64,000 bases of DNA from Paracoccaceae bacterium (GCA_965277275.1 CBDICG010000002.1:2322850-2386849), one strand, 5' to 3'; positions 10,306 through 27,581 are shown, counted from the first letter of the stretch. Translations and numbers: made by a program. Notes: a model not told the origin generated them from the letters alone.

Positions 10306-11197
10306 GCTCGGCTCCACGCGGGCGGCGTCTCGTCCGAGGGCTGCGCCTGGATTGCAGCCCGGCCCACAGCTCTCTCGCCCAATCTGTGCGACGGATACGC
10401 GATTGGCGTGCGGATGCAGCGGGGGTCAGCCCGATCCCGAACGCGGTTTCCCGATTGGCAACAAGGCGCGCCCGAGCGCGGGAAAATCCCTTTGCGCTGC
10501 GCGATGGTCCTAAGGGCATAGGGAGCAAAGAGGCGACCCGTTGCATACTGGCCTACTCTCCGCCCCGACGCGCCTCGCGTGCCCGCTTTTTGCCGGATCA
10601 GGCGCATCTGCCGCGACTGATCCGGGCGACAGCAAGTGACACGGCAACGCAGTGGCGGACACCCCGTGCGCCCGCTTTCGCCAGCCTCCCCCGTTCACGG
10701 GCGAGCGTGGTCCATCGTGGGCTTGCCCACCACCAACGTGCCTTCGTAGCCTTCGCAAGGGGCGCAACGAACTACGCGCGCATCCCTCTCTGACCGCCTC
10801 CGACCGTCGCTTCCGCCCATCGCGCTGTGTCGCAGATCATCGAGCCTGCGCTCGGAATGCACCGCACGAAAGCCGCGCGCCGCGTGCCAAAACGCGGGGC
10901 GCGCGCATCTCTGCGCATCTGCTGGCGGATCGATGCCGACGCCTCGCGGCCGCAAGCGCTTGTATGTTGGGGCCTTCATGACCTTTGCCCATTGCTGCCA
11001 CGTTTTGTCCATATCCGGATGCTCATGATCCTGCCTACAACGCTTGGGGAGGCGACTATGCTGCACAGAAGGCTGCCACTTCTGGTATCTCTGAACTTGC
11101 AGGCAAGGCCCGTCTTTCGGCACCGCGGATGCGATGCCGGAGCCGTAAGAATTTCGGCCGTCAGCGCGATTGCGACCAACAGCATGAGGCGACCGAT

Positions 11198-13654
11198 ATG
11201 AGTCTATTTCAGGCCGCACCACACCGGAGCATTTCCGACGCCGTGGCAGATCTCTGGCAATCACCGCCGGACGCCCTGAGCAGCTTCACGGCTGCTGGGG
11301 CCCTTATGAGAATCCCGGACGATCTGGCCGTCGTGTCGTCCGCCAACCTCGCAGACATGGATCTTGTCGCCCATCCGGGGGGATGCGGCTGCTTTGGCTG
11401 CGGCGTGCGCGATGACGACGAGGGCGCCGGAACCGGGCCTGTCCTGGTGTCTTCGAGCCTGCAGGCGGCCTCGCTTCAGGATCTGGCCGACTACTTGCGC
11501 GAGGGCTACTGGTCCGACTCCAACTGGTACTCTTTCAACTGGAACATGACCGGGTCGGGCAGCAACTCCAATTCCGGTGAACTCCTCTATAATCTGAGCG
11601 GGTACGACTTTTCCGATGAGATCTACGATCGGGAAGACACGAACGGGATCTCGAATGCGCGCAAGGAACTTGTGCGCGACAGTTTCGATCTGTTTGAAGA
11701 GGTCTTGGGGATCAACTTCACCGAGACGACGTCGCAGGACCCGAGCGACGTGGATTTCTTCTTCTCGGATAACGACGGTGGAGCCTACGCCTCGACGTGG
11801 ATCAACACGTCGTCGGGTACAAGCTCTATCAGTTTCGTCAACGTCGCCGCGGACTGGAGCGGAAGCACGTCGACCTTCGACGACTACACGCTGCAAACCA
11901 TCCTGCACGAGATCGGTCATGCGCTCGGCCTGGGACACCAGGGGAACTACAACGGCTCGGCCGGGTATCCGGGCAACGCAAAGTTTGCCAACGATTCCTG
12001 GCAGGCGTCCATGATGTCGTATTTCTCACAGAGCGAGAACTCGACGATCCCCGCCGACCGCGAGTTCCTCCAGACGCCGATGTCGGTGGACTGGCTGGCC
12101 CTCGAAGAGATGTACGGCGATCAGAGCTTCGGTGGCACGACCTTTGGGCTTCAGAATGCCTTCGAGGGCGATACGGTCTACGGGTTCAACACGAATATCA
12201 GCGCGTCTGTCAGCGAGATCTGGGCCCTCTTCGCCGACTACGCGGATCGGACCGCCTCGACGATTGTCGACGGCGGCGGAAGGGATACGCTGGATTTCAG
12301 CGGCTATTCCGAGAACCAGCGCATCGACCTGCGGCCATCGTCGACCAACTCGACGACGCCCGTCTCGTCCGATGTCGGCGGCCGGGTCGGGAACCTGACG
12401 ATTGCCGTGGGAACGGTCATCGAAAACGCTGTAACGGGCTCGGGTGACGACACGATCACCGGCAACGACGCGGATAACCTGATCGTTGCGAATGGCGGCG
12501 ACGACACCATCGCGGGTGGTCTGGGCGATGACACGATCGAAGGTGGCGGCGGGACGGACACGCTTGTGCTCGGCGCAGACCTCGAGTCGACGTCCATCTC
12601 GCAGCAATCTGCCGACAGGTGGATCTTCTCGCTGGAAGGCGGGACGCGGTACGACGCAAGCTCCGTGGAGTTCGTACAGTTTACCGACACGACGGTTGCT
12701 GTCGACGATCTCGAGGAAACCGGGGATGTCGAGGAGCCGGAGCCCGTTCTCCCGGGCGATGCCCTCACCGACTTCACGGATGACGGCACCAGCGACGTGC
12801 TTTGGCGCGACGGCGCGTCCGGGCGCACCGGCTACTGGGAAATGGATGGCGGAGCGCGCACGTGGAACGAAGTCGGCACCGTCACCACGGCATGGGACAT
12901 CGTGGGTTCGGGCAACTTCTCGGGCAGCAGCGCAGATGACGTTCTTTGGCGCAACACTGAGACGGGCCGGACCGGCTACTGGGAGATGGACGATGGCGAC
13001 TTCACCTTTGTCCAGCTCTCGACTGTCGGCCTGAATTGGGATGTCTTCGGTGTCGGCGACTTCGACGGCAACGAACAGGATGACATCCTGTGGAGAGATA
13101 CCGATTCCGGTCGGGTCGGATACTACCGGATGGAGAACGGCAATTTCACCTGGACCCCGCTCTCGACCGTCTCCGAGACCTGGCAGATTGTCGGCACCGG
13201 TGACTTCGACGGAAACGGTCAGGATGACATTCTTTGGCGCGACACCGCCACGGGTCGGACCGGATACTACGAGATGGACGGCAGCGAGTTCTCCTGGAAC
13301 GAGCTTGCGACTGTCGATCTCGACTGGAAGGTCGTTGGCACCGGCGATTTCAATGGCGATGGCGAGGCCGATATCCTCTGGCGCAACACCGAATCCGGGC
13401 GCAATGGCTATTGGGAAATGACGGATGGCGACTTCGCGTGGAGAGAGATTTCCGGCGCGAGCGGCAACTGGGAAGTCGCGGCAACGGGCGACTACTCCGC
13501 CGACGGGAGCGACGACATCCTGTGGCGCGACACGAACTCCGGCCGGACCGGTTACTGGGACGTCGACGGATCGTCCACATCATGGACAGAGTTGGGCGTT
13601 GTCGGCCTGAACTGGGATGTCGAGGGAACCGCACCGGATCCGTGGTGGGTCTAG
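11198..13654 (+). CDS. Serralysin-like M10 zinc metalloprotease with RTX repeats and six C-terminal FG-GAP/VCBS-like repeats
   Basis: HEIGHALGLGH, Met-turn SMMSYF, GDTVYGFN, GGxGxD repeats, six 48-aa D-F-x-G-x-G-x-D-D-I-L-W-R repeats. Start uncertain (11198 has GAGG). Confidence 0.9.
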   Translation: MSLFQAAPHRSISDAVADLWQSPPDALSSFTAAGALMRIPDDLAVVSSANLADMDLVAHPGGCGCFGCGVRDDDEGAGTGPVLVSSSLQAASLQDLADYLREGYWSDSNWYSFNWNMTGSGSNSNSGELLYNLSGYDFSDEIYDREDTNGISNARKELVRDSFDLFEEVLGINFTETTSQDPSDVDFFFSDNDGGAYASTWINTSSGTSSISFVNVAADWSGSTSTFDDYTLQTILHEIGHALGLGHQGNYNGSAGYPGNAKFANDSWQASMMSYFSQSENSTIPADREFLQTPMSVDWLALEEMYGDQSFGGTTFGLQNAFEGDTVYGFNTNISASVSEIWALFADYADRTASTIVDGGGRDTLDFSGYSENQRIDLRPSSTNSTTPVSSDVGGRVGNLTIAVGTVIENAVTGSGDDTITGNDADNLIVANGGDDTIAGGLGDDTIEGGGGTDTLVLGADLESTSISQQSADRWIFSLEGGTRYDASSVEFVQFTDTTVAVDDLEETGDVEEPEPVLPGDALTDFTDDGTSDVLWRDGASGRTGYWEMDGGARTWNEVGTVTTAWDIVGSGNFSGSSADDVLWRNTETGRTGYWEMDDGDFTFVQLSTVGLNWDVFGVGDFDGNEQDDILWRDTDSGRVGYYRMENGNFTWTPLSTVSETWQIVGTGDFDGNGQDDILWRDTATGRTGYYEMDGSEFSWNELATVDLDWKVVGTGDFNGDGEADILWRNTESGRNGYWEMTDGDFAWREISGASGNWEVAATGDYSADGSDDILWRDTNSGRTGYWDVDGSSTSWTELGVVGLNWDVEGTAPDPWWV

Positions 13655-15704: not shown

Positions 15705-16709
15705 TCAGGGTGCGCTTTGCTTCTTTCGGTAGCTTGCCGGGGTCTCTCCCGTCCAACGCTTGAACGCGCGCGTAAAGGCGCTCTGCTCGGAGAAGCCTGT
15801 GAGAAAGGCGATTTCGGCCAGGGAATACTGGTTTTCCCGGAGCATCCCGAGCGCGAGTTCGCGCCGTGTTTCGGCAGTCAGGGTCTGGAAGGTCACGCCG
15901 TGTTCGGTCAGGCGGCGGTGGAAAGACCGTGCGCTCAGCCCCAGCCCGCGCGCGATGTCCGCCATCTTCGGCAGGCCCTCGCTGAGCGCACGGGCGATGG
16001 CATCCCGCGCCGTGCGCACAAGTGCAGCGTCTTCCCGGATCTCGGAGAGTTCCCTGTCGAGATGCGCGATCAGGAACCGCGTGATGCCCTCGTCACCGAG
16101 GCGGTTGGGCTCTTCCAGCGACGCGCGCGACAGCAGCATCGCGTCCTGATCGGCGCCAAACCGAACCGGGCAGCCGAAATAGGCCTCGTGTTGGTGAACG
16201 TCTTTTGGGCCGGGATGTTTGAAGCACACCTCGAGGGGAGCGAATGACCGGTGCGTCACCTGCCGGGCCAAGGACACACCGCTGGCCAGATCCGCCTCGA
16301 TCGACAGGCGCATGCCCAGCCGGCGCGCGCCTTCCCTGTGCTCGACGAACCAGGCCCCCTGTTCGGTCTCCTGCACCTCGTAGCGGACGATACTTGTCCA
16401 GAGGCGCGCGTATCGCGCAACGCGCGAGAAGGATCCCAAAAGGTTCGGCGCCGCCTTCCACGCGAGCCCCAGCGCGCCGTATTCGTCGGGCCGCATGGAG
16501 TCACCGACCGTCAGCGGCAAGGCGGTGATGTCCATCTGCTCTGCCATGAGCTCGAGCATGCCGTAGTAGGCATCCTCCGAGAGCATGATCTTGGGATCCC
16601 AGGGCCCGTCCGGATCCAGCGCGACGGAGTCCAGCACCTGCCGTGCGTCGATCGCATCGCCTGCCGTCGCGACGACCTTGCGTGCGAAGAGCGAGGTGAC
16701 TTCACCCAT
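15705..16709 (-). CDS. AraC family transcriptional regulator
   Basis: YGALGLAWKAAPNL ligand domain; C-terminal LGLSARSFHRRL and IAFLTGFSEQSAFTRAFKRWTG. Confidence 0.95.
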   Translation of the reverse strand: MGEVTSLFARKVVATAGDAIDARQVLDSVALDPDGPWDPKIMLSEDAYYGMLELMAEQMDITALPLTVGDSMRPDEYGALGLAWKAAPNLLGSFSRVARYARLWTSIVRYEVQETEQGAWFVEHREGARRLGMRLSIEADLASGVSLARQVTHRSFAPLEVCFKHPGPKDVHQHEAYFGCPVRFGADQDAMLLSRASLEEPNRLGDEGITRFLIAHLDRELSEIREDAALVRTARDAIARALSEGLPKMADIARGLGLSARSFHRRLTEHGVTFQTLTAETRRELALGMLRENQYSLAEIAFLTGFSEQSAFTRAFKRWTGETPASYRKKQSAP

Positions 16710-17104: not shown

Positions 17105-17806
17105 ATGGCATCAAACGACACGATCGGTTCTGGCGGTTTTGGCGGTTCTGGCGGTTCTGGCGGTTCTGGCGGTTCTGGCGGTTCCGGCAGCTTCGAGGCC
17201 GAGATGCGGGCCGCGCTGTTTGACGCGCGGCGGTCCATGCGCACGCGCCGTTTCACCCAGGACAGCCCGCTGTTGCCGGATATCTGGCTGGCGTTCGCCG
17301 CCGCTCCGAGTGCTCCTCTCGACATGCTCATCAATCCAACGCGCGGCAAGCGCACAGGCATGGTCGCGCAGGAAATGCGCGGTCTCGTCGAGGCATTGCG
17401 CGATACCGGGCGGTCCGACGAGGCCACCGTGCGGGGAAGCTGGGGCACCGCCGAGCCGCGTATCGTCCACATGCCGGGAATGATCGTCGCGCGGCTCTAT
17501 TTCAACGAGCTGATGCGCATCGTCCTGCCCAGTACGAATTGGTGGGACACACAGATGGGCCTGCTCGATGGCGGCCCGTTCAGCCGTGCCGAGCGTGATG
17601 AGAACGGCTCCGAAGCGGAGCGCCACCACCTCTTCAACGCCGCCCAGATCAACAAGCTGATCGATGTCTACGACGCAGTCGTGGCCGAGGATCAGCCGCT
17701 CGAGACGATCAAGTCCCTCCAGCCGCCGCCCTACGAGTTTCTCAAGCTCATCGAGGTCGCTGCGCTGGTCGTCGGGCGGCATCTCGAAGGGCAGATCGAG
17801 GCATGA
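17105..17806 (+). CDS. N-terminal part of an S8 peptidase gene, ends at an in-frame TGA
   Basis: ATG after GGGGG RBS; GS-rich start, then RFTQDSPLLPDIWLAF...LYFNELMRIVLPSTNWW. Same frame as 17840..19216. Confidence 0.75.
   Translation: MASNDTIGSGGFGGSGGSGGSGGSGGSGSFEAEMRAALFDARRSMRTRRFTQDSPLLPDIWLAFAAAPSAPLDMLINPTRGKRTGMVAQEMRGLVEALRDTGRSDEATVRGSWGTAEPRIVHMPGMIVARLYFNELMRIVLPSTNWWDTQMGLLDGGPFSRAERDENGSEAERHHLFNAAQINKLIDVYDAVVAEDQPLETIKSLQPPPYEFLKLIEVAALVVGRHLEGQIEA
17126..17188 (+). repeat. 9-bp in-frame tandem repeat (GGTTCTGGC)x7, two variant units, encoding a Gly/Ser tract
   Basis: Counted directly. Confidence 0.92.
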
Positions 17807-19216
17807 GACGAAGACGCCGCATCCGCTATTCTGCACCCGGTGCGCCTCTTCGCGTCGCTCTACGAGAAGTGGCCCGCCGACCCGACGCAACCCCGCTCGC
17901 GCGCCGTCATCTGGAACGTCACGCGCAACAGAAAGGCCGATCCGGCGATCGAGAAGTCGGTCAAGGCGATGAAAGCCGATGCGGGCCGAATGCTCTTCAG
18001 CATCGATTGCAGCGCGCTGCGCTGTGCCGTGATCGACAGCGGGATCGACACGCTGCACCCCGCCTTCCAAAACCGCGAGCCCAGGTCCGGCGAGCCTCGG
18101 TCGCGCGTCATTGGAACCTACGATTTCGGCGATCTGCGCTATGCCCTCGACCCGCGCTTTCTGGAAAAGCTGCGCGACCTCGTGCGCACCGGAACGCAGC
18201 CGCCGAGCGAGACCTCCCCGAAACGCGAGGATCGCGCCCTTGCGCGCACCCATCGCCGCTTTTCGGGCTACGATGCGCCGGGGACGGCGCAGATCCGCGA
18301 GGACCGTCTCGCGGACTACCTCCAGCTTGTGATTGACCGCGCCAATGCCGGGCTCGAGATCGACTGGGCCGTGGTCGAACCGCTCATCCACGAGCCCCTG
18401 ACGGACACCGTCGCTCCGCCTCCGCCGCGCCTCCCCCACGGGACGCAGGTCGCCGGGGTGCTGGCCGCCGATCACCCGCAAGCGGATGGCTCGCGGCTGG
18501 CGGGCGTTTGCCCGGATCTGCGCCTCTACGATCTCCGCGTCGTATCCGAAACGGAGGACAACGCGACAACCGTCGCGGCACATGATTTCGAGGTCATCGC
18601 GGCGCTGAAGTTTCTCGGGCACCTGAACGGGCGGGCCGACGAGCCCGCTGTGCACGCGGCCAACGTATCGGTCTCGATCCCGCATGACGTGTCCCGCTTT
18701 GCCTGCGGGCGCACACCCATCTGCGAGGAATGCGAGCGCCTCGTATCCTCCGGCGTCGCGGTCGTCGCTGCGGCGGGCAACTCCGGCTACAATGACGACG
18801 AGGATGTGGATGCCCGGTTCTACCGCTCCGGTTCGATCACGGATCCGGGGAATGCCGAGCTGGTGCTGACCGTTGGCTCGACGCATCGCGAGATGCCCCA
18901 CCAGTATGGCGTCAGTTACTTTTCGTCTCGCGGACCGACCGGCGATGGCCGGCGCAAGCCGGATCTCGTCGCTCCGGGGGAAAAGTTGAGCGTTCCGGCG
19001 CCGGGCGGGCGCCTCGATATCGTGGACGGAACGAGCTTCGCCGCGCCGCATGTCACGGGGGCCGCGCTCCTGATGATGGCCCGGCATACCGAGCTGATCG
19101 GGCGCCCCCAGCGCATCAAGGAAGTCCTGTGCAGCTCCGCCACGGATCTCGGCCGGGAGCCCTATTCGCAAGGCGCCGGCATGCTCGATGTGCTGCGGGC
19201 GCTGCAATCCATTTGA
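17807..19216 (+). CDS. S8 subtilisin-like serine protease catalytic domain (continuation after TGA; possible GTG start 17840)
   Basis: Triad intact: AVIDSGID, PHGTQVAG, AAGNSG, GTSFAAPHVTG. No signal peptide. Confidence 0.9.
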   Translation, partial: DEDAASAILHPVRLFASLYEKWPADPTQPRSRAVIWNVTRNRKADPAIEKSVKAMKADAGRMLFSIDCSALRCAVIDSGIDTLHPAFQNREPRSGEPRSRVIGTYDFGDLRYALDPRFLEKLRDLVRTGTQPPSETSPKREDRALARTHRRFSGYDAPGTAQIREDRLADYLQLVIDRANAGLEIDWAVVEPLIHEPLTDTVAPPPPRLPHGTQVAGVLAADHPQADGSRLAGVCPDLRLYDLRVVSETEDNATTVAAHDFEVIAALKFLGHLNGRADEPAVHAANVSVSIPHDVSRFACGRTPICEECERLVSSGVAVVAAAGNSGYNDDEDVDARFYRSGSITDPGNAELVLTVGSTHREMPHQYGVSYFSSRGPTGDGRRKPDLVAPGEKLSVPAPGGRLDIVDGTSFAAPHVTGAALLMMARHTELIGRPQRIKEVLCSSATDLGREPYSQGAGMLDVLRALQSI

Positions 19217-19231
19217 GAGGAGAATTGAACA

Positions 19232-22200
19232 ATGGCCAAGTTTACAATGGTCGCCGACGGGTTCGTGCCCAAGAAGGTGAAGGTCGCGCAGGGGCTGAAG
19301 ACAGGCTATGCGCCGAAGTCAAAGCGCACCCGGTCCGGCCTGCTCTCGGTGATCGGCGACGACGAGCGCAGCCGGTTCACCGACACGCATCTTGCCCCCT
19401 GGCGCATGATCTGCTCGCTGCGCATTCACGCGGCCTCCGGCGCGGTCATGATCGGAACGGGCTGGCTGATCGGCCCGAGGACGGTGCTGACGGCTGGCCA
19501 CTGCATCGCGACCCGCGAGCACGGTGCCCATGCCCGGATCGAGGTGATGGCCGGGCGCAACGGAGACGTCTTTCCGTTCGATACGAGGGTCGTCGACCAT
19601 GGCCGCATGGAGGTGCATCCACGCTGGGCCAACGGCTTCGATCCGGATCGCGATGTCGGCGTGCTGCATCTTCCCGATGAGCTTGGGCGCGAGACGGGAT
19701 GGTTCGCCACGGCCACCCCGACAGACGGGGAGCTCGCAGGACTCTTGGTGAACGTCGCGGGCTACCCGGGCTCGATCGAGGTCGGGGGCAGGCGCACGCG
19801 CGTCAACGGGCGCGAGCTGTGGTGGCACGCGGACGCCATCGCGCGGTCCGACGCCGAGCGCATCTTCTACGCCACCGATACGAGCGGCGGGCAGAGCGGC
19901 GGCCCGGTCTGGACAGCGACCGATCAGGGCGGCGCTCCGATCGGGATTGCCGTTCATGCCTATGGCGCGACGCAGCTGCGTCTGCCGGGCGGGCTCGCCC
20001 CCGCCATGGCCAACTCCGCGCCCCGGATCGACGCGGATCTCGCGGACCGCATCACCGACTGGATCGCGCAGAGCCATGCCATGGCCGAGATGGCAGCTCC
20101 ACCCGCGCCTCCGCACGGCACTTTCGGGTCGGGCATAGCCTCGGGCGCCGGGGCAGGAAACGGCTCCGGTGGCAGGCAAGGCGGAGGAGGCGCCGGTGGA
20201 GGGAGCGGCGGCGGTGGCCATCCGCCAACGGGCGGCGGTGGCAACTCGGACGGCGGAGGCGGTCGCAGTGGCGGCGGCAGCGGCGGCGGCGATGGCGGCG
20301 GCGGCCCGATCGACATCACCGAGCTGATGCGCCGCGTCTCGGATCCCGACGTCCCCTGGTCCGAGGTGGCGCCCTATCTCGCAGAAGACGAGACCTTTTC
20401 GCAGCCCTTCTCCCCGCGCTATCGCCTGTCGCCCGGTCCGGGCCAGCCGGTGCCGGAATCGGCGGCCGCACTCGATTGGCTCAATGCCGCCATTCGCGCC
20501 CGGCGACGGCGCCAGTTCAACCGGGACACGCGGCGGCGCCCCGGGGACCGCCGGATTGTCACGGACGGCGATTCCTGGTTCCTCCACCCGCTCATCACCG
20601 AAACATGGGGCGTCCTGCGCCCCCGCTATCTCGCGCTGAGCCTCGATGGTGCGGGCGACCTGGTCGAGGATATCGCGCGGGAGCGGCACGCAATCGCCGC
20701 AGCCCGCGAGATCGGAGCGCTGGCCGTCGTCCTCAGTGGCGGCGGGAACGATGTTCTGGCCGGGGGCGCCCTCGAAGAGGTTCTGACCGTTGGCGATGGG
20801 CAGGACCCGCGGACCTACATTGATCTCGCCGCCTACCGCGCCAAGGTCGACGCGGTTGTCGACGATCTGGGCGGCTATGCCCGTGCGCTGCTGACCGGCA
20901 ACGTCGGTCTGCACGTCTTCATGCACGGCTATGACCGGCCCCGCCCGATGCCCGGAGGCAAATGGCTGGAACGCCCGATGCGCGACCGGGTGCCCCCCGC
21001 GCTTCAGGCGGGCGTTGTCGGCCACATGATCGACGTTTTCAACGACGCGGTGGCAGAGCTTGCCGCCGATCTTGGCAGCCGCGCGCACTACGTCAACATG
21101 CGCGGTGCCGCGCCGCATCCCTGGTACGATGAGATCCACCCGAGCGACGCTGGCTTCGTCGAAGTCGGTAACCGGATGGATGCCGCAATCCGTGCCGCCC
21201 TTGGCGAAGCGGCCCCGGAGTTCGCAGGCAGCGCGCTGCCGCCCCTCGCCCCGCACCTGATGCGCAACGTCGAGGACGCGGACGAGGCCGTCGCCCGCCG
21301 GCGCTATATCGCCCGGATGACGGAGGCGGGCCATCCCGTGCTTTCGGTGCGTCCACTGGGCATGCAGGGGCCGCAGCCCGAGAGCGTCGCGCGCGTGCCG
21401 GGCAGGGAGCGCGTCGTCCTGCCCGCTGGTACCATGGCGGCGACAGAGGGGCTGGACTTCGGCGACGATGTCGCTCTCGAAGTCGTTCTGGGCGCGCCGG
21501 ATTTCCTTGCCGCCCGGTTCCTGCGCGATGGCGCGGCGCGGGCCTCTGCCGTCTGCCGCGTGCGCCTGCCCGGCGGTTTCGGCTCCGGCTCGTTGCTAAG
21601 GGGCGACGTGATCCTGACCAACCACCACGTCCTGCCCGATGCAGCCACGGCGGCGCAGGCGATTGCGGAGTTCGACTTCGAGGAAGGCGGCACGCCGATC
21701 CCGGTGCGCCTCGAACCCGAGAGGCTCTTTATCGCAAGCGAGGGGCACGACTTCGCGCTGGTCGCCTGTGACGCGTCGGCGCTCGCCGGGGTAACCCCGA
21801 TCGATCTTCCGCTCGAGCCATCGGGGATCGTCGAGGGCGCGCCGGTCAACATCATCCAGCACCCCGCCGGACGCCAGAAAGAGGTCGCGCTGCGCAACAA
21901 CGACGTGCTCTCTGTCCTCTCCGGCACCATGCGCTATCGCACGGATACGGAGGGTGGCTCCTCCGGCTCGCCGGTGTTCGACGATTCCTGGCGGCTCGTG
22001 GCGCTGCACCGTGCCGGTCTGGCGGGCGCCTTCAACCAGGCGGTGCGGATCGAGGCGATTGCCGGGTTCCTCGAGGCGCGCCTCGCCAACGGCGACATCG
22101 CGAACGCCACGCTCCTGCGCCAGGTCCTGCAGGGAACGGCGCCGGAGCTTGGGTTCTTCGGGCGGGCCGGGGCTTTCGACACGCTCACGCCCGAAGTCGA

Positions 22201-23146
22201 GCTCCCGAGTTTCACGGGAGACGGCGTTTTCGCGGATGTCGGGTTCTGGAACATCCAGGATTTCTTTGGCGACCCCTCGGAGGCGCGCATACGCCGCGTG
22301 GCCGAGCTGCTGACCGACATGAACATGGATGGGATGGGCCTGATGGAAGTGTCCGAGGCGCCTGTTCGGGCTCTGGCGGCGCGGATGAACGCGATGGGCG
22401 GCAATGTCGGCGTGCTGGCGTTCGACACCGCCGGGACGCGGGACCACGCGTTGCTCTTTGACCGCGACACCACCACCGTGCGCCTGATGCGGGAGGTGCT
22501 GGATCGCCATGCCGGTTTGATCGGAGAGCGCATCCAGGGCCGGCTTGTCTTCCCGCGTGAACCGCTCATCGCGGAGGTGCATGTCGGAGACGCCCGCTTC
22601 GTGATGATCGTGGTGCATCTGAAATCCAAGGCCGGCAGCAACAAGCCCTTGTCAGAACGCCGCCGCCGCCGCGCCGCCGAGATCCTGACGATGATCGTCG
22701 ACGATATCCGCACGGATACGGGCCTGCCCGTGGTCATTGGCGGCGATTTCAACGAGGCGCTCGATACCGATGTGCTGTCGAGCCTCACGGATGCGCCCGG
22801 CCACATGACCCTCACCGCGGATGACCACGAGGATGGGGCCATCACGCTGCTCAACCCACGGTTCGCCTCGCTGATCGACCACGTGATCGTGGCCGGTGAC
22901 CTGCAGCTTGGCGACATCGAGGATGACGACCTCGCCATCGTGCGGTTCGACCGCTCGATCTCGGATTTCGTCGACACGCTCTCGGATCATACACCGCTGG
23001 TGATGCGCGTCGTGATGCGGGACGAGGCGGTGCCCCGCCAAGTGCCGGGCGATGGCGCAGGCGGATCCGCTGGCGGCGGCGGCGAAGCGCCCGACGCGAT
23101 CGACATTCCGCAGGGCGCGAGCGCAGTCCGGGTCAGCTTCGACTAG
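19232..23146 (+). CDS. Multidomain protein: V8-like trypsin / Gly-rich linker / SGNH hydrolase / trypsin / EEP nuclease-phosphatase
   Basis: LTAGHC..DVGVL..TSGGQSGGP; GDSWF..GGGND..DEIHP; TNHHV..DFAL..TEGGSSGSP; WNIQ..MEV..VHLKS..GGDFNE..IDH..LSDH. Strong GAGAGGAG RBS. Confidence 0.88.
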   Translation: MAKFTMVADGFVPKKVKVAQGLKTGYAPKSKRTRSGLLSVIGDDERSRFTDTHLAPWRMICSLRIHAASGAVMIGTGWLIGPRTVLTAGHCIATREHGAHARIEVMAGRNGDVFPFDTRVVDHGRMEVHPRWANGFDPDRDVGVLHLPDELGRETGWFATATPTDGELAGLLVNVAGYPGSIEVGGRRTRVNGRELWWHADAIARSDAERIFYATDTSGGQSGGPVWTATDQGGAPIGIAVHAYGATQLRLPGGLAPAMANSAPRIDADLADRITDWIAQSHAMAEMAAPPAPPHGTFGSGIASGAGAGNGSGGRQGGGGAGGGSGGGGHPPTGGGGNSDGGGGRSGGGSGGGDGGGGPIDITELMRRVSDPDVPWSEVAPYLAEDETFSQPFSPRYRLSPGPGQPVPESAAALDWLNAAIRARRRRQFNRDTRRRPGDRRIVTDGDSWFLHPLITETWGVLRPRYLALSLDGAGDLVEDIARERHAIAAAREIGALAVVLSGGGNDVLAGGALEEVLTVGDGQDPRTYIDLAAYRAKVDAVVDDLGGYARALLTGNVGLHVFMHGYDRPRPMPGGKWLERPMRDRVPPALQAGVVGHMIDVFNDAVAELAADLGSRAHYVNMRGAAPHPWYDEIHPSDAGFVEVGNRMDAAIRAALGEAAPEFAGSALPPLAPHLMRNVEDADEAVARRRYIARMTEAGHPVLSVRPLGMQGPQPESVARVPGRERVVLPAGTMAATEGLDFGDDVALEVVLGAPDFLAARFLRDGAARASAVCRVRLPGGFGSGSLLRGDVILTNHHVLPDAATAAQAIAEFDFEEGGTPIPVRLEPERLFIASEGHDFALVACDASALAGVTPIDLPLEPSGIVEGAPVNIIQHPAGRQKEVALRNNDVLSVLSGTMRYRTDTEGGSSGSPVFDDSWRLVALHRAGLAGAFNQAVRIEAIAGFLEARLANGDIANATLLRQVLQGTAPELGFFGRAGAFDTLTPEVELPSFTGDGVFADVGFWNIQDFFGDPSEARIRRVAELLTDMNMDGMGLMEVSEAPVRALAARMNAMGGNVGVLAFDTAGTRDHALLFDRDTTTVRLMREVLDRHAGLIGERIQGRLVFPREPLIAEVHVGDARFVMIVVHLKSKAGSNKPLSERRRRRAAEILTMIVDDIRTDTGLPVVIGGDFNEALDTDVLSSLTDAPGHMTLTADDHEDGAITLLNPRFASLIDHVIVAGDLQLGDIEDDDLAIVRFDRSISDFVDTLSDHTPLVMRVVMRDEAVPRQVPGDGAGGSAGGGGEAPDAIDIPQGASAVRVSFD

Positions 23147-23240
23147 CGATGAGGGGCCGCGCGCGGGCGCGGCTCATGCCGCCCACAGGGCATCCCACCC
23201 GCCGAGTGTCGGGGGAATGCGCCACACAGGGAGAGATGAC

Positions 23241-24680
23241 ATGGCCGGAACCAGAAAAGACATCGCCACGCTCGGCGGGGATTGGCCGGATGAGCTTTTA
23301 TGGTACGCGCGCGCCGTCGCAGAGCTGCGCACGCGGCCTCTGACAGACCGCACAAGCTGGGCCTATCTTGCCGCGCTGCATGGGTTGAACGGGGAGGGCT
23401 GGATCGATCAGGGGATCCTTCCCCAGAACACCCCGGCCCCGCCTCCCAACGAAATGCAGCTGATGTTCAACCAGTGCCAGCATGCCGGGTGGTTCTTCCT
23501 GCCGTGGCATCGCGGCTATCTTGCGGCGTTCGAGGCGATCCTCGGCGGCTGGATCGCCCAGCAGGGCGGGCCGCAGGATTGGGCCTTGCCCTACTGGAAC
23601 TATCTCTCCGATGCCCCGGGCGCGCGGGATCTTCCTCCCGCATTCCGCGATGCGACCCTGCCCGACGGAACGCCGAACGCGCTGGCCCGGGCCGTCCGTG
23701 GGCCAGCCACCACGCTTGGCCCGCTGCCCTGGACGGATTCCCGGGATATCACCTTGGCATCCCAGACCGCCGAGGCCTTTTACACATCGGATCCGGGGGG
23801 GCTCGGGTATGGCGGTCCGATCAGCGGCTTTGCCTCGCAGGGGAACGCCTTTGGCGCGGTGGAGAATGATCCCCACAACCTTGTCCACGTGATGATCGGC
23901 GGCGGGACAGCGCAGGGTCAGCAGGCAGGCTGGATGCTCGATCCCGACTTTGCCGCCCTCGATCCGGTGTTCTGGGTGCATCACTGCAATATCGACAGGC
24001 TCTGGGCGGCCTGGATGACCGACCCGACACATGTGCAGGAAGTCTCTGCCGCCTGGGGCAATGGCCCGTTTCCCCGCCGCTTTGCTATGCCCTCCGCCGA
24101 TGGCTCCGGGATCGAGACATTCGCGCCCGAAGAAACGTTGCCCAACGGGGCGCTGGCGCCCGATTATGACGATCTCACAGCGGGCACGGGCATCCTGCCC
24201 GCCCCCGAGATCGCTGCCGCCGCCCCGCCTGCCCGCCCTCCTGCGCCGCTGCTGATCGGTGCAAACGATGCGCCGCTCACCGTGGACGCCGAAGCCCGGA
24301 CAACCCAGCTCGCCCTGCGGCGCGCGCCCGTCCCCGAGCTTGCGTCCGCCGTGCCCGCGCGCGTGTTCCTCAGTGTCGAAGGGGTACGCGGCCAAGCCCC
24401 GAGCGGCGTGCTGCGCGTCTCGGTCTCCGCGCCGGGCGGCGAGGAAGCGTTTCGCACCGCCATCGCCTTCTTCGGCCTCGGCAAGGCCTCCCGGACAGAC
24501 GGCAGCCATGCGGGCAACGGTCTTGCCGCGACGGTCGATGTCTCGGCCGAGCTGGGCGCCCTCCTGGCCGAGGGCGGCGCGGCGCTCGATGCGCTCGACC
24601 TGGCCCTGGTGAGGCCAACCGATGGAGAGCCGCCGATCACGGTGGATCGTATCAGCCTGCACACCCAGCCGGGCGCCTGA
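23241..24680 (+). CDS. Tyrosinase (type-3 copper protein) with C-terminal extension domain
   Basis: CuA: ALHG..CQH..FFLPWHR. CuB: PHNLVH..DPVFWVHHCNIDRLW. No signal peptide. Confidence 0.92.
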   Translation: MAGTRKDIATLGGDWPDELLWYARAVAELRTRPLTDRTSWAYLAALHGLNGEGWIDQGILPQNTPAPPPNEMQLMFNQCQHAGWFFLPWHRGYLAAFEAILGGWIAQQGGPQDWALPYWNYLSDAPGARDLPPAFRDATLPDGTPNALARAVRGPATTLGPLPWTDSRDITLASQTAEAFYTSDPGGLGYGGPISGFASQGNAFGAVENDPHNLVHVMIGGGTAQGQQAGWMLDPDFAALDPVFWVHHCNIDRLWAAWMTDPTHVQEVSAAWGNGPFPRRFAMPSADGSGIETFAPEETLPNGALAPDYDDLTAGTGILPAPEIAAAAPPARPPAPLLIGANDAPLTVDAEARTTQLALRRAPVPELASAVPARVFLSVEGVRGQAPSGVLRVSVSAPGGEEAFRTAIAFFGLGKASRTDGSHAGNGLAATVDVSAELGALLAEGGAALDALDLALVRPTDGEPPITVDRISLHTQPGA

Positions 24681-24681
24681 G

Positions 24682-25455
24682 ATGCGCAGCGCGCGCGCCG
24701 CGTGGGCCCAGCTGCGGACCGGTCCGCTGCCCGTGCTGCTGATCCTCAGCCTCCTTGGCTTCATCGCGCTCGGGGTCATTCCCGGCGCCGCGGCCGCCGC
24801 CGTATGCGGGAGCCTGCGCCTCGCCGATCTGTGGTCCCTCGGTGGGCCGGCGCTCACGGGGGTGAGCCCTGCATCCGTAGCGCTCGACTGGGGGGTCATG
24901 GTCGTCGCGATGATGAGCGTCGTGATCACGCCGCAGGTGGCCCATGTCCTGCGCCTGAGCCCTCCGCGTGCCCGGGGTGCCGCGGCGGCCTCCGTCTATC
25001 TCGGCTTCCTGTCCGTCTGGCTTCTGGCGGGGGCGCTCCTGCTGCCGCTCGGGATGCTCCATGTCCAGACAGCGCCCGGTGGCCTTGCGCCGCTTCTGGC
25101 GGTCGGGTTCGCGCTTGTCTGGAGCGCCTCTCCTCCGGCACAGGCCGCGCGCAACCGGTGTCACCGGCTTGGCCGGGTCGGCGGGTTCGGGCCACGCGCG
25201 AGGTGGGACAACGCGCGGATCGGCATCCGCACCGGCCTCTGGTGCGTTGCCGCATGCTGGCCGGTCATGCTCATCCCGCTCACGATCGGCGGGGCAGCGC
25301 ATGTGCCCGCGATGGCCATTGCCGCGCTCTATCTCCTGCTGGAGCGGATCGGGCCCCCGGCCCCTGTCCGCTGGAGCCTTCCCCCCGTGATCTCGCTCGT
25401 CCGGCAGGCCCTCCTGCCCGTTGCAAGAGTCCGCCGCACCAGCCGCGCCATCTGA
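24682..25455 (+). CDS. DUF2182-like putative metal-binding integral membrane protein
   Basis: DWGVMVVAMM, ARNRCH, GLWCVAACWPVM, HVPAMA..LLER; several TM segments; 1 bp after the tyrosinase. Confidence 0.8.
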   Translation: MRSARAAWAQLRTGPLPVLLILSLLGFIALGVIPGAAAAAVCGSLRLADLWSLGGPALTGVSPASVALDWGVMVVAMMSVVITPQVAHVLRLSPPRARGAAAASVYLGFLSVWLLAGALLLPLGMLHVQTAPGGLAPLLAVGFALVWSASPPAQAARNRCHRLGRVGGFGPRARWDNARIGIRTGLWCVAACWPVMLIPLTIGGAAHVPAMAIAALYLLLERIGPPAPVRWSLPPVISLVRQALLPVARVRRTSRAI

Positions 25456-25589
25456 AAAGCCGCAATGCCGTGCTCCCACGGCGCGCGCATTGCCCAACCC
25501 CGGCCACCGCACAGCCCGCTTCATCTTCTGTTCCCACCGCCTCACCGCGCCTGGATCTGCGGGGGGCAGTCCGCGAATGTCTTCCTGCG

Positions 25590-25604
25590 TTAACCGAGGC
25601 TTAC
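25590..25604 (+). promoter_or_regulatory. CtrA-like site with one mismatch, TTAA-N7-TTAC
   Basis: TTAA ccgaggc TTAC about 50 bp upstream of the Hint/RTX gene. Confidence 0.4.
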
Positions 25605-25655
25605 GAGGTCGCGCGTAAGGTCCATGCCACCGCCCCCGATCCGGAGCCGACTGGC

Positions 25656-27581
25656 ATGCCGCTCTACCTGTTTTCCGGCTATGCGCCGAGCGATTTTCAG
25701 ACCATCCAAGGCTCGACGCCGGGCAGCCAAGCGTCAAAAATGTTGCGCGTACCCGACGACACGACGCACGCCTTCGAGGTCAACGATGACGACGGGATGC
25801 TATCGGGATCCGGCGGGTCGGTCAGGACCGCGGGCGATACAAACCAGAAAGCCAGTGTCTACCAGGGCAATGCCGCCGCCGCCTCAGGCACAGTGTATGT
25901 ACAAAGTGTTATGTCCTTCGAAGATCAGGCTGGCACGCCCCACAAGGCCTACCTTGTGGGGATCGAGGAGAGCGGCGAACGCTTTTATGTCTTCGAAGCG
26001 CCGCCACCGGCGGGTGGAACGGATCTCACGGTCATCTCGTCGTCCCCACCTCCGAGCGAGGGCGTCGCCTATTCCGCCCTTGCCGGCAACGACATCCGCG
26101 ATTCGGACGCGCGGCCCGCCACGGATGCCTCGGGGAACGAGTACATTGCATCCGGCTCCGGGGATGACGCGCTCACCACGCGCGGCGGAAACGACACCGT
26201 CGACGCAGGGGAAGGGAACGATACCGTCACCGCCGGAGACGGCGACGACAGCATCGAAGGCGGGGCAGGCAACGATTCGCTCGACGGCGGCGCCGGGAAC
26301 GACACGCTCTCGGGGGGAGCAGGCAATGACACGCTCCATGGCGACGCCGGCAACGACCAGATCGACGGCGGCGCGGGCAGCGACATCATCTATGGCGGCG
26401 AGGGCAACGACACCCTCGCTGGCAACGAGGGCACCGATTGTCTGCGCGGGGATGCCGGCAACGACGTCATCTTCGGCGGCGCCGGGGACGACGCCGCGAC
26501 CGGAGGGGCAGGCAACGATACGCTCTACGGCAACGACGGGGCGGATGTTCTCTATGGCGGCGACGGCGACGACTTCCTGATCGGGGACGGTGGCAACGGC
26601 GAAACCGGGAACGATACGCTGATCGGTGAAGCCGGAGATGACACGCTGTTCGGTCAGGGCGGCGATGACGTCATGACCGGTGGAAGCGGCAACGACTTCT
26701 TCCTTGTCAGCGCGGGCAACGACACGATCACGGATTTCAACGGGGGCAATACCGGATCGATCGATGACCGCGACCTGATGAACAACGACTTCGTCAACTT
26801 GTCGACTTACTACGACAACCTCAGCCAGGTGCGCGCCGACCACGCCGATGACGGCGTCCTGAACCAGTCAAACACGTCTGACAGCCACGGAAACGCGGTC
26901 GATTACTCGGATAACACCCAGTTCGGGGCCTCTTCCCTGACAATGCAGGGCGCAACTTCGCAAAGCTTTACCTACGACACCACGGGGCTGGAGTGCTTTG
27001 CGTCGGACACCCTTATCGACACGCCGAAAGGTGCGGTGCGGGCAGGGGCGCTCCGTCCAGGGGATCTCGTGACGACGCTCGATCATGGGCCTCAGCCGCT
27101 CCTGTGGGTCGGGGTGCGCCGGCTGGAGGGGCATCACCTCAGGGGCAACGTCAGGCGCCGTCCTGTCCTTGTCCGGCAAGGGGTGCTGGGCGCCCGCCGC
27201 GATCTCTTCGTGTCGCGCCAGCACGGGCTGGTTGTCGGCGATAACCTCTCCCGCGCGATCCACCTCTGCCGGACGATGAAAGGGGTGCGTATCGCCCATG
27301 GCAAGCGGCACGTCACCTACGTGCATCTCCTGTTCGAGCGCCATCAGATCGTCATATCCGAGGGCGTGCCGAGCGAGAGCTTCTATCCCGGGCCGAGCGC
27401 GCTCCGGACAATGGCCCCCGAGGCGCGCCGCGCGGTGCTGCGGCTCTTGCCGGGTCTGGATCGCCCCGAGGCCACGACCGGTTTCGCGGTGGTGCGCGCG
27501 GTCTACGGCCCCACGGCGCGGCCCTTTGCGCCGCCCCGGCGGGCTGCCGCCGAGCGGCCCGCCCTCGACATCGCCTCCTAG
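25656..27581 (+). CDS. RTX Ca-binding repeat protein with C-terminal Hint (bacterial intein-like) domain
   Basis: Many GGAGNDxL nonapeptides; ECFASDTLIDTPKG..GDLVTTLDHG..YVHLLFERHQIVISEGVPSESFYPG. ATG after GGAG. Confidence 0.92.
   Translation: MPLYLFSGYAPSDFQTIQGSTPGSQASKMLRVPDDTTHAFEVNDDDGMLSGSGGSVRTAGDTNQKASVYQGNAAAASGTVYVQSVMSFEDQAGTPHKAYLVGIEESGERFYVFEAPPPAGGTDLTVISSSPPPSEGVAYSALAGNDIRDSDARPATDASGNEYIASGSGDDALTTRGGNDTVDAGEGNDTVTAGDGDDSIEGGAGNDSLDGGAGNDTLSGGAGNDTLHGDAGNDQIDGGAGSDIIYGGEGNDTLAGNEGTDCLRGDAGNDVIFGGAGDDAATGGAGNDTLYGNDGADVLYGGDGDDFLIGDGGNGETGNDTLIGEAGDDTLFGQGGDDVMTGGSGNDFFLVSAGNDTITDFNGGNTGSIDDRDLMNNDFVNLSTYYDNLSQVRADHADDGVLNQSNTSDSHGNAVDYSDNTQFGASSLTMQGATSQSFTYDTTGLECFASDTLIDTPKGAVRAGALRPGDLVTTLDHGPQPLLWVGVRRLEGHHLRGNVRRRPVLVRQGVLGARRDLFVSRQHGLVVGDNLSRAIHLCRTMKGVRIAHGKRHVTYVHLLFERHQIVISEGVPSESFYPGPSALRTMAPEARRAVLRLLPGLDRPEATTGFAVVRAVYGPTARPFAPPRRAAAERPALDIAS

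Follow-up and report, generated by a model that had tools for sequence, protein, structure and literature searches.

The window analysed here is a 64,000-nucleotide stretch from a Paracoccaceae bacterium (GCA_965277275.1 CBDICG010000002.1:2322850-2386849). It contains, in order and on the same strand, an S8 (subtilisin-like) protease gene, a fusion gene encoding a 1304-amino-acid (aa) protein with two trypsin-like domains, and a tyrosinase gene followed by a gene for a PpoB2-type copper chaperone. The locus is probably composed of two parts. The S8 gene and the fusion gene would form a module of the kind known from trypsin/S8/nuclease conflict systems, in which the fusion protein is a multi-enzyme precursor armed by a proteolytic relay. 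The latent tyrosinase and its PpoB2 partner would be a separate pair beside it. A relay of S8 and Glu-specific proteases arming a four-enzyme precursor is the mechanism that the alignments support best. An earlier reading, made from the sequence alone, had proposed that recurring x-Pro-Glu (PE) motifs form a cleavage code that links the fusion protein to activation of the tyrosinase. All positions are counted from the first letter of the window, and the coordinates of the features are collected in Table 1.

Protease pockets and candidate activation sites of the fusion protein

The full fusion architecture is rare. In a collection of 5.8 billion proteins it is represented by four sequences, and only three full-length homologues of the window protein (49-53% identity) were found. 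Alignment A1 consists of the window fusion and these three homologues. A genome scan with full-length A1 returned just the previously found Limibaculum locus and one partial SGNH match. Pfam places Trypsin at aa 68-257, Trypsin_2 at aa 784-925, and Exo_endo_phos at aa 1006-1253. The SGNH segment between the two trypsins scored as Lipase_GDSL_2 in homologues (precomputed Pfam, P0002 and P0004), and the catalytic-type residues of the endonuclease/exonuclease/phosphatase (EEP) domain are invariant in A1. The module boundary at aa 359 coincides with the N-terminus of P0005, P0006, P0008, and P0010, which are distant relatives related by domain shuffling. P0010 joins SGNH, Trypsin_2, and S8 in a single protein.

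The alignments support a V8/BIGEP-type S1 pocket in both protease domains. Among solved structures, the one nearest in sequence to domain 1 is 1p3c, the B. intermedius glutamyl endopeptidase (3.6e-12). Domain 2 is closest to the V8 protease structures 1wcz and 1qy6 (3e-7), followed by other glutamyl endopeptidases. The catalytic triads, His90/Asp141/Ser222 and His799/Asp840/Ser911, are invariant in A1 and align to those of V8 and BIGEP. The sequence-only reading had noted a Thr five residues before the catalytic Ser and a downstream His in both domains, and this was borne out residue for residue. Domain 1 contains DTSGGQS at aa 216-222 (nucleotide 19877) and AVHAYG at aa 240 (nucleotide 19949), and domain 2 contains DTEGGSS at aa 905-911 (nucleotide 21944) and ALHRAG at aa 924 (nucleotide 22001). 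In the alignments, the resulting pairs, Thr217/His242 and Thr906/His926, coincide with Thr164/His184 of V8 and with the corresponding Thr and His of the B. intermedius enzyme.

The equivalents of Thr190, His213, and Gly216 are invariant in the fusion family and close to invariant in the wider protease families. The wider family of domain 2 was sampled with 150 representatives, mutually <50% identical, from about 6,900 members; His926 is present in 150/150, Thr906 in 146/150, and Gly929 in 101/150. Position 216 is occupied by Gly245 in domain 1 and Gly929 in domain 2. V8, BIGEP, and Esp also have Gly at 216, and in these enzymes the alpha-amino group of residue 1 (Val1) offsets the substrate charge (PMC5508998). 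Because this group supplies the charge, the pocket is complete only after removal of the propeptide. The Gly at position 216 therefore assigns both domains to the V8/BIGEP subtype. Cleavage after Glu by either domain is predicted from the pocket type and from the Glu at position -1 of relatives.

The earlier statement that the Thr/His pair defines a Glu pocket had the right direction, and the word "defines" was too strong. His213 and Ser/Thr190 have been termed mandatory in all glutamyl endopeptidases, but Thr190/His213/Gly216 also occur in Gln-specific 3C proteases, and BIGEP retains its specificity when His213 is replaced by Thr, so that His213 is not the charge determinant (review PMC5508998). 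The two domains might then prefer Gln or a broader range of residues, the Glu at -1 would be structural, and the fusion would work uncut, as a multi-enzyme toxin. Gln replaces Glu at -1 in three of 15 close relatives of domain 2, and the weaker PDB matches of this domain include SplB and FAM111A, both in line with this alternative. It is nevertheless the least likely of the explanations weighed here. The solved structures that match best in sequence are without exception glutamyl endopeptidases, the N-terminal motif matches that of V8 and BIGEP, whose amino terminus provides the charge, and Glu far exceeds Gln at -1 in both families (140/150 and 140/160).

The start of each protease domain can be aligned with a known mature N-terminus. 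Both domains open with a (V/S)-(V/I)-(I/L)-G-x-D-x-R strand that matches the mature N-terminus of V8 and BIGEP in the alignment; in domain 2, Val751 falls on Val1 of BIGEP. The distance from residue 1 to the catalytic His is 51 residues in domain 1 and 48 in domain 2, compared with 50 in V8 (from the alignment). Glu750, immediately before domain 2, is invariant in the four fusions, and the same position is Glu in 140 of the 150 family representatives. The family motif at this point is L-E-(R/K/V)-(I/V)-(I/L)-G-x-x-D, with Leu at P2. The near-invariant Glu at -1 across thousands of V8-like Trypsin_2 proteins in conflict systems points to self-activation after Glu as a general switch.

The domain-1 family was represented by loci retrieved solely by a domain-1-type protease, comprising 80 metagenome contigs (median 3.4 kb) and 79 genomes. 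Position -1 is Glu in 140 of 160 instances from these 159 loci. All four fusions have Leu38 at this position rather than Glu. Leu or Ala at -1 is found in three of eight loci with an S8 gene immediately upstream versus two of 152 others (p=8e-4), and in six of 11 S8-adjacent loci once the window and two more fusion loci are added. Glutamyl endopeptidases with Glu at -1 self-activate, and V8 requires another protease (review PMC5508998). Since Leu and not Glu is at -1, protease 1 would need another enzyme, most likely the conserved upstream S8 protease. An S8 gene of about 710 aa lies directly upstream of the fusion gene in 3/3 homologue loci.

The S8 gene of the window is interrupted by an in-frame TGA. 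Homology to the intact proteins of the homologue loci (707-727 aa) continues across this stop, which falls in a poorly conserved linker. The TGA is not an assembly error, because it is identical in contigs from four independent sequencing runs. The GTG at 17840 could serve as a restart of translation for the S8 catalytic part. A Gly/Ser repeat (GSGGFGGSGGSGGSGGSGGSGS) is located at the N-terminus of the S8 gene (window 17150-17230, plus strand; aa ~125-150 of the S8 open reading frame). It reads PEPPEPPEPPEP on the opposite strand and is absent from the homologue S8 proteins.

Leu38/Ser39 and Glu750/Val751 are predicted to be better candidate processing sites than the PE motifs. In the relay, the S8 protease would cut after Leu38 and thereby switch on protease 1. 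A Glu-specific cut after Glu750, made by protease 1 or by protease 2 itself, would switch on protease 2. Further cuts at the junction residues Glu659 and Glu988, and perhaps at Glu409 and Glu972, could free the SGNH and EEP enzymes.

Position, frequency, and conservation of the x-Pro-Glu motifs

All seven x-Pro-Glu motifs of the sequence-only reading are present, with LTPE starting at 22184 and not at 22185. Two PE dipeptides had not been listed, LEPE/R at 21710, inside trypsin 2, and FAPE/E at 24120. The motifs had been described as lying at domain junctions. This is correct for AAPE, PQPE, TAPE, and LTPE, which are inter-domain, and for the tyrosinase PAPE, which lies in the extended core-to-lid linker (aa 301-336) of the AlphaFold model. 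It is not correct for the remaining two. PVPE408 of the fusion is 50 residues inside a conserved module, because the module begins at aa 359, and PVPE366 of the tyrosinase falls within the lid domain itself, in a loop flanked by strands 353-359 and 374-384 (pLDDT 66).

The number of PE dipeptides is not above chance in either window protein when compared with composition-preserving shuffles. The fusion contains 6 against 4.1 expected (p=0.22), and the tyrosinase contains 3 against 1.9 expected (p=0.31). Pro precedes Glu no more often than Arg, Ala, Asp, or Leu does. The earlier reading had itself cautioned that Pro-rich linkers raise the chance rate. An excess is present in two of the full-length homologues, P0002 with 10 versus 4.2 (p=0.007) and P0003 with 15 versus 6.2 (p=0.001), out of three. 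Most of these dipeptides are at non-homologous positions, and several are inside domains or in Pro/Glu-rich tails.

Conservation at the junctions was assessed by aligning homologues. One of the five fusion motifs is invariant, two are retained in 3/4 sequences, and two are lost. When distant relatives of the module are included, Glu409 is found in 8/8 sequences and Pro408 in just 4/8. Linker Glu residues are not preferentially invariant in the four fusions (4/14, against 39/273 linker residues overall; Fisher p=0.12). Neither tyrosinase motif is conserved. In the 118-sequence tyrosinase alignment, the column of the PAPE Glu is A52, P20, V14, G10, and that of the PVPE Glu is A42, I14, T12. Any PE at all is found in the PAPE region of 17/117 homologues and in the PVPE region of 16/117.

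The proposal that a PE code directs cutting of the fusion junctions and of PAPE/I and PVPE/L in the tyrosinase, activating the latter, is very unlikely. It agrees with the Glu type of both pockets, with the invariance of P408-E409 and the partial retention of TAPE and LTPE, and with the PE excess in P0002 and P0003. Pro at P2 is also acceptable to at least one glutamyl endopeptidase, as Boc-AAPE has been seen bound in Glu-SGP (PMC5508998), and many of the protease-linked tyrosinases described below have a P-E shortly after their YxYD motif. Set against this are the chance-level counts in the window proteins, the loss of AAPE and PQPE, and the lack of the tyrosinase motifs in nearly all 117 homologues and in HcTyr1. 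The best-conserved junction residues, Glu659 and Glu750, have no preceding Pro, and the family residue at P2 is Leu. Judged by these counts and alignments, x-Pro-Glu is not a code shared by the two proteins; it appears to be a by-product of Pro-rich linkers that contain Glu.

The window tyrosinase and protease-paired tyrosinases of other lineages

The tyrosinase gene begins 94 nucleotides after the end of the fusion gene. Its product matches Pfam Tyrosinase (2e-33) and DUF7868, and belongs to a family of >2,500 proteins, with 59-61% identity to the best members of the PpoB2 class. The type-3 copper ligands (His47, 81, 90, 212, 216, and 247/248) are invariant in 113 sequences. The AlphaFold model has a pLDDT of 94.2, and its Foldseek matches are HcTyr1 of Hahella (8B74, TM 0.82), latent aurone synthase, Ralstonia TYR, and the A. 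oryzae pro-tyrosinase MelB. An invariant Phe411 aligns with the placeholder Phe397 of HcTyr1. From its sequence and model, the window tyrosinase is classed as a PpoB2-coupled, lid-type latent enzyme.

PpoB2 adjoins the tyrosinase in 78/80 related genomes, as found by a scan of species-representative genomes with the tyrosinase alignment. Proteases of the domain-1 or domain-2 type are present within 8 kb of a PpoB2-class tyrosinase in 0/80 of these genome loci. Three loci of close tyrosinase homologues contain PpoB2 and no trypsin. The fusion homologue loci likewise contain no tyrosinase (0/3), and their other neighbours encode CHAT, EEP, Endonuclease_NS, and peptidoglycan amidases. The link from fusion to tyrosinase drawn in the earlier reading therefore lacks conservation, whether judged from the fusion loci or from the tyrosinase loci.

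S8 genes near close tyrosinase homologues (L007, L009) were considered as evidence and set aside, being unrelated or just generically similar to the window S8. One of these, a 445-aa S8 gene in L009/L010 (6475-7812, minus strand), adjoins the gene of a close tyrosinase homologue in divergent orientation. Its similarity to the window S8 is generic (31% over 114 aa to the S8 of L005).

Lid-type tyrosinases do adjoin domain-1-type proteases in other lineages. Among the 159 loci retrieved by protease, this was observed in 8/80 metagenome loci and 10/79 genome loci (18/159), with both genes on the same strand in 17/18 pairs. The genomes include Paracoccus haematequi, P. sediminis, and P. yibinensis, and the protease-paired class was seen in L047, L052, L062, L101, L136-L143, and L153. 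The gene order in L047 resembles that of the window, with S8, trypsin, and tyrosinase, and then a second trypsin. None of the 18 protease-linked loci contains PpoB2. The linked tyrosinases share 33-37% identity with the core of the window enzyme (tblastn best segment, full-length members).

The core-to-lid linker of the protease-paired class is rich in Glu, at about 8-11%. The median is 10.0% in the linked tyrosinases (4.6% in their own cores) versus 2.7% in the PpoB2 class (3.1% in the cores), a contrast with Mann-Whitney p=3.6e-8, not corrected for relatedness. The window linker has three Glu (4.9%) and ranks 30 of 117 in the PpoB2 class; with this value and with PpoB2 present, it is unlike the protease-paired class. 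Paracoccus-type tyrosinases (L136, L137, L140, L142, L143) contain GVEAG/APEAG four to six times per protein. The repeats occur in the linker between core and lid, behind the first strand of the lid, and in a C-terminal loop of the lid, and a tandem GVEAGGVEAG is present in L136. From its repetition, GVEAG/APEAG looks like a repeated protease target. In several groups of protease-linked tyrosinases, a P-E follows 4-6 residues past the YxYD motif.

The paired proteases are stand-alone precursors with no evident signal peptide and a pro-region of 65-90 aa that ends in (L/M)-E, directly followed by (S/T)-V-I-G. Window domain 1 does not fall within the group of tyrosinase-linked proteases, whose loci are evenly spread in the similarity ranking. 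Pro-regions of domain-1-type proteases (L062, L052, L101, L111, L136-L143, L153) open with a conserved M-x-L-K-S-V-S-K-P-like motif. This motif resembles MAKFTMVADGFVPKK at the start of the window fusion (19232-19280), where the homologues have MAKLTPVTKG. A hydrophobic signal sequence is not visible in these pro-regions. In L111 (3664-8690), from a Planctomycetota metagenome-assembled genome (MAG), a gene for a multicopper-oxidase-AhpC/peroxiredoxin fusion directly precedes the tyrosinase and a V8-like protease, giving three redox or oxidase functions consecutively.

By analogy with this class, uncapping of the window tyrosinase by the fusion proteases is plausible. The fusion proteases would then act at one or more linker Glu residues, such as Glu323, without a PE code, and the tyrosinase would be a further latent effector of the module. 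As an account of the window locus this is unlikely. The recurrent same-strand pairing, the shared order in L047, the Glu-rich linkers of the linked class, the short same-strand distance in the window, and the three Glu in the window linker are in its favour. Opposing it are the membership of the window tyrosinase in a PpoB2-coupled class with no proteases in 80 genomes, the lack of PpoB2 in all 18 linked loci, the ordinary Glu content of the window linker for its class, the position of domain 1 in the ranking, and the tyrosinase-free fusion homologue loci. HcTyr1, the closest characterised relative, loses its lid without a protease. Going by the alignments, nothing conserved in the window tyrosinase's own family supports uncapping by a protease.

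A wider alternative would be a bacterial cascade resembling prophenoloxidase activation, in which the window is a recombinant that captured a PpoB2-type tyrosinase. Sensor-coupled Glu-specific proteases of the V8-like type would self-activate by a cut after the conserved Glu and would uncap a tyrosinase with a Glu-rich linker. The freed tyrosinase would be a toxic or cross-linking effector beside nucleases, lipases, and cell-wall hydrolases. This is regarded as a tentative possibility. Under the favoured two-part reading, protease and tyrosinase may have come to adjoin in the window through a new recombination of two modules or by chance, and for annotation the tyrosinase-PpoB2 pair counts as an ordinary melanin-type operon unless a link is demonstrated. 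Activation of the tyrosinase is real-looking, from sequence, in the sister class and unproven in the window locus.

Conflict-system context, neighbouring genes, and known systems

Relatives of the window proteases are found among genes of conflict systems. In Paracoccus sediminis (L140), EAD1 adaptors and an nSTAND1 NTPase surround them, and in an Arenicellales MAG (L101) the surrounding genes encode a TPR-S sensor, a muramidase, and NucA. NucA is a neighbour or fusion partner of related proteases in L002 and L050. Kaur, Burroughs, Iyer and Aravind (2020) described a "System 3" with multiple trypsin/S8 peptidases and a NucA endonuclease, for which a proteolytic cascade was proposed (PMC7159879). 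The window module is similar in that it combines several trypsin-like domains with an S8 protease, has a nuclease-type effector in the same protein as the proteases, and has protease relatives that sit with genes for NucA, EAD1, a STAND NTPase, TPR-S, and cell-wall hydrolases. It differs in having EEP and SGNH where System 3 has NucA, and a tyrosinase partner is not mentioned in the description of System 3 (PMC7159879). On this comparison the window module would be a variant working like System 3, and not a proven member.

Several points weigh against a relay-armed precursor separate from the tyrosinase. Every cut site is predicted from alignment, and the near-invariant Glu at the domain start could be structural rather than a cut site. 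The association of Leu/Ala with S8 represents about two independent lineages, and five S8-adjacent loci retain Glu. The in-frame stop in the window S8 gene is real, and the proposed activator may be impaired or split. The AlphaFold model of fusion aa 359-1304, built from a 15-sequence alignment, has a mean pLDDT of 59.5 with the EEP domain mostly unmodelled; it is a rough guide only, of too low quality for a fold search, and does not establish that the linkers are exposed. No NucA, EAD1, STAND, or TPR-S gene was found in the 64-kb window, and a tblastn search for EAD1, nSTAND1, and TPR-S with the L140 and L101 proteins matched only trypsin parts. The assignment to System 3 is therefore made via relatives only. 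Lastly, domain-1 loci pair with a tyrosinase in 18/159 cases, and the adjacency in the window may for this reason be functional.

Compared with V8 (GluV8/SspA), BIGEP, and S. epidermidis Esp (MEROPS S1B, COG3591), the window domains share the triad, the Thr190/His213/Gly216 set, the N-terminal strand, a spacing of 48-51 residues from residue 1 to the catalytic His, and a precursor with a predicted pro-region. They differ in having no signal peptide and in forming part of a 1304-aa multi-enzyme protein. With Glu at -1, domain 2 and most relatives are predicted to be self-activating, whereas V8 needs aureolysin.

In HcTyr1 of Hahella sp. CCB MM4 (PDB 8B74), the lid comes off slowly with no protease involved, and activity rises about 10-fold (PMC11609597). 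The window enzyme has the same two-domain fold (TM 0.82 normalised to 8B74) with a Phe placeholder in the lid. It differs in sequence (28% identity) and in being PpoB2-coupled, and the PE motifs are absent from HcTyr1. The other lid-capped pro-tyrosinases compared were latent aurone synthase, A. oryzae MelB, and Ralstonia TYR 7XIO. PpoB1-PpoB2 of Marinomonas mediterranea is an operon of tyrosinase and copper chaperone, and to our knowledge no protease has been reported in it. As in that operon, the window tyrosinase gene is directly followed by the PpoB2 membrane protein gene; the window alone has a protease fusion upstream.

In the window, the S8 gene is flanked by a gene for an AraC regulator (15705-16709, minus strand) that is divergent from it. 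All four fusion sequences terminate in a short conserved x-F-(D/T). The C-terminal tail contains I-P-E-(D/N)-V in the three homologues and I-P-Q-G in the window (23105-23116, aa 1292-1295). Three nearby genes encode RTX-repeat proteins that look type-I-secreted. They are an M10/serralysin-like protease with FG-GAP repeats (10985-13654, plus strand), an RTX-Hint protein directly after PpoB2 (24702-27581, plus strand), and a 1314-aa S8 protease with a P-domain and RTX repeats (32883-36827, minus strand). RNA runs under the same species label consist only of oligo-dT libraries (26-36 Gb), which are unsuitable for bacterial operon mapping and were not used. Large oligo-dT libraries are odd for a free-living bacterium, and the label may refer to a eukaryotic host or a mixed sample.

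Table 1. Genes, domains, predicted cut sites, and x-Pro-Glu motifs of the locus, in window coordinates.
Feature	Position	Strand	Details
N-terminal part of partner S8 protease gene	17105-17806	+	In-frame TGA at 17804-17806
S8 (subtilisin-like) catalytic part, same frame	17840-19216	+	Pfam Peptidase_S8 2e-33; PADLOC "subtilase" 3e-36
Fusion gene	19232-23146	+	1304 aa: pro-region, protease 1, Gly-rich linker, SGNH module, protease 2, EEP domain
Predicted pro-region, aa 1-38	19232-19345	+	Ends in invariant GLL/S
Predicted activation cut Leu38/Ser39	19343-19348	+	In alignment, Ser39 coincides with residue 1 of mature V8 and BIGEP
Protease domain 1, V8/BIGEP type, aa 39-283	19346-20080	+	His90, Asp141, Ser222; pocket Thr217, His242, Gly245
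Gly-rich linker, aa 300-358	20129-20305	+	Length varies among homologues
Small N-terminal subdomain and SGNH hydrolase, aa 359-655	20306-21196	+	GDSW 445-449, GGGND 503-507, DEIHP 633-637
Linker, aa 656-750	21197-21481	+	Contains AAPE, PQPE, and invariant Glu659 and Glu750 (21479-21481)
Predicted Glu-directed activation cut Glu750/Val751, ahead of protease 2	21479-21484	+	
Protease domain 2, V8 type, aa 751-965	21482-22126	+	His799, Asp840, Ser911; pocket Thr906, His926, Gly929
Linker, aa 966-988	22127-22195	+	Contains TAPE and LTPE; Glu988 invariant
EEP domain, aa 989-1262	22196-23017	+	Pfam PF03372, 3.5e-9
Tyrosinase gene, 479 aa	23241-24680	+	ATG at 23241 with GGGAGAG ribosome-binding site; homologues of 478-500 aa cover the full length
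Tyrosinase parts			Core aa 1-300, linker 301-336, lid (DUF7868) 337-479; placeholder Phe411 at 24471-24473
PpoB2-type copper chaperone	24682-25455	+	Pfam PF09948, 1.6e-21
Fusion PVPE (P408-E409)	20447-20458		Invariant in four fusion sequences
Fusion AAPE	starts 21209		Lost in fusion homologues; Glu659, three residues upstream, invariant
Fusion PQPE	starts 21371		Lost in fusion homologues; sits in an alignment gap
Fusion TAPE	starts 22136		Retained in 3/4 fusion sequences
Fusion LTPE	starts 22184		Retained in 3/4 fusion sequences; Glu988 invariant
Tyrosinase PAPE	starts 24198		
Tyrosinase PVPE	starts 24327		

A weak motif argument is thus replaced by two predicted cut sites, Leu38/Ser39 and Glu750/Val751, and an S8 partner, which together make a plausible relay for arming a four-enzyme precursor. 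The recurrent pairing of a V8-like protease with a lid tyrosinase that has a Glu-rich linker is a separate outcome. Two key Aravind-group surveys of such systems make no mention of tyrosinase, and literature searches for tyrosinase with anti-phage or protease terms returned no report of the pairing. In the arthropod prophenoloxidase cascade, serine proteases activate a latent type-3 copper phenoloxidase in defence. The protease-paired tyrosinases of L047, L101, and L140 suggest a similar logic, as an analogy only, and the proteases are of unrelated origin (clip-domain S1A in arthropods, V8-like S1B in bacteria). If the pairing reflects activation, bacteria would possess an equivalent of the phenoloxidase cascade of insects, and tyrosinase would gain a new role, in the immunity or the programmed cell death of bacteria.

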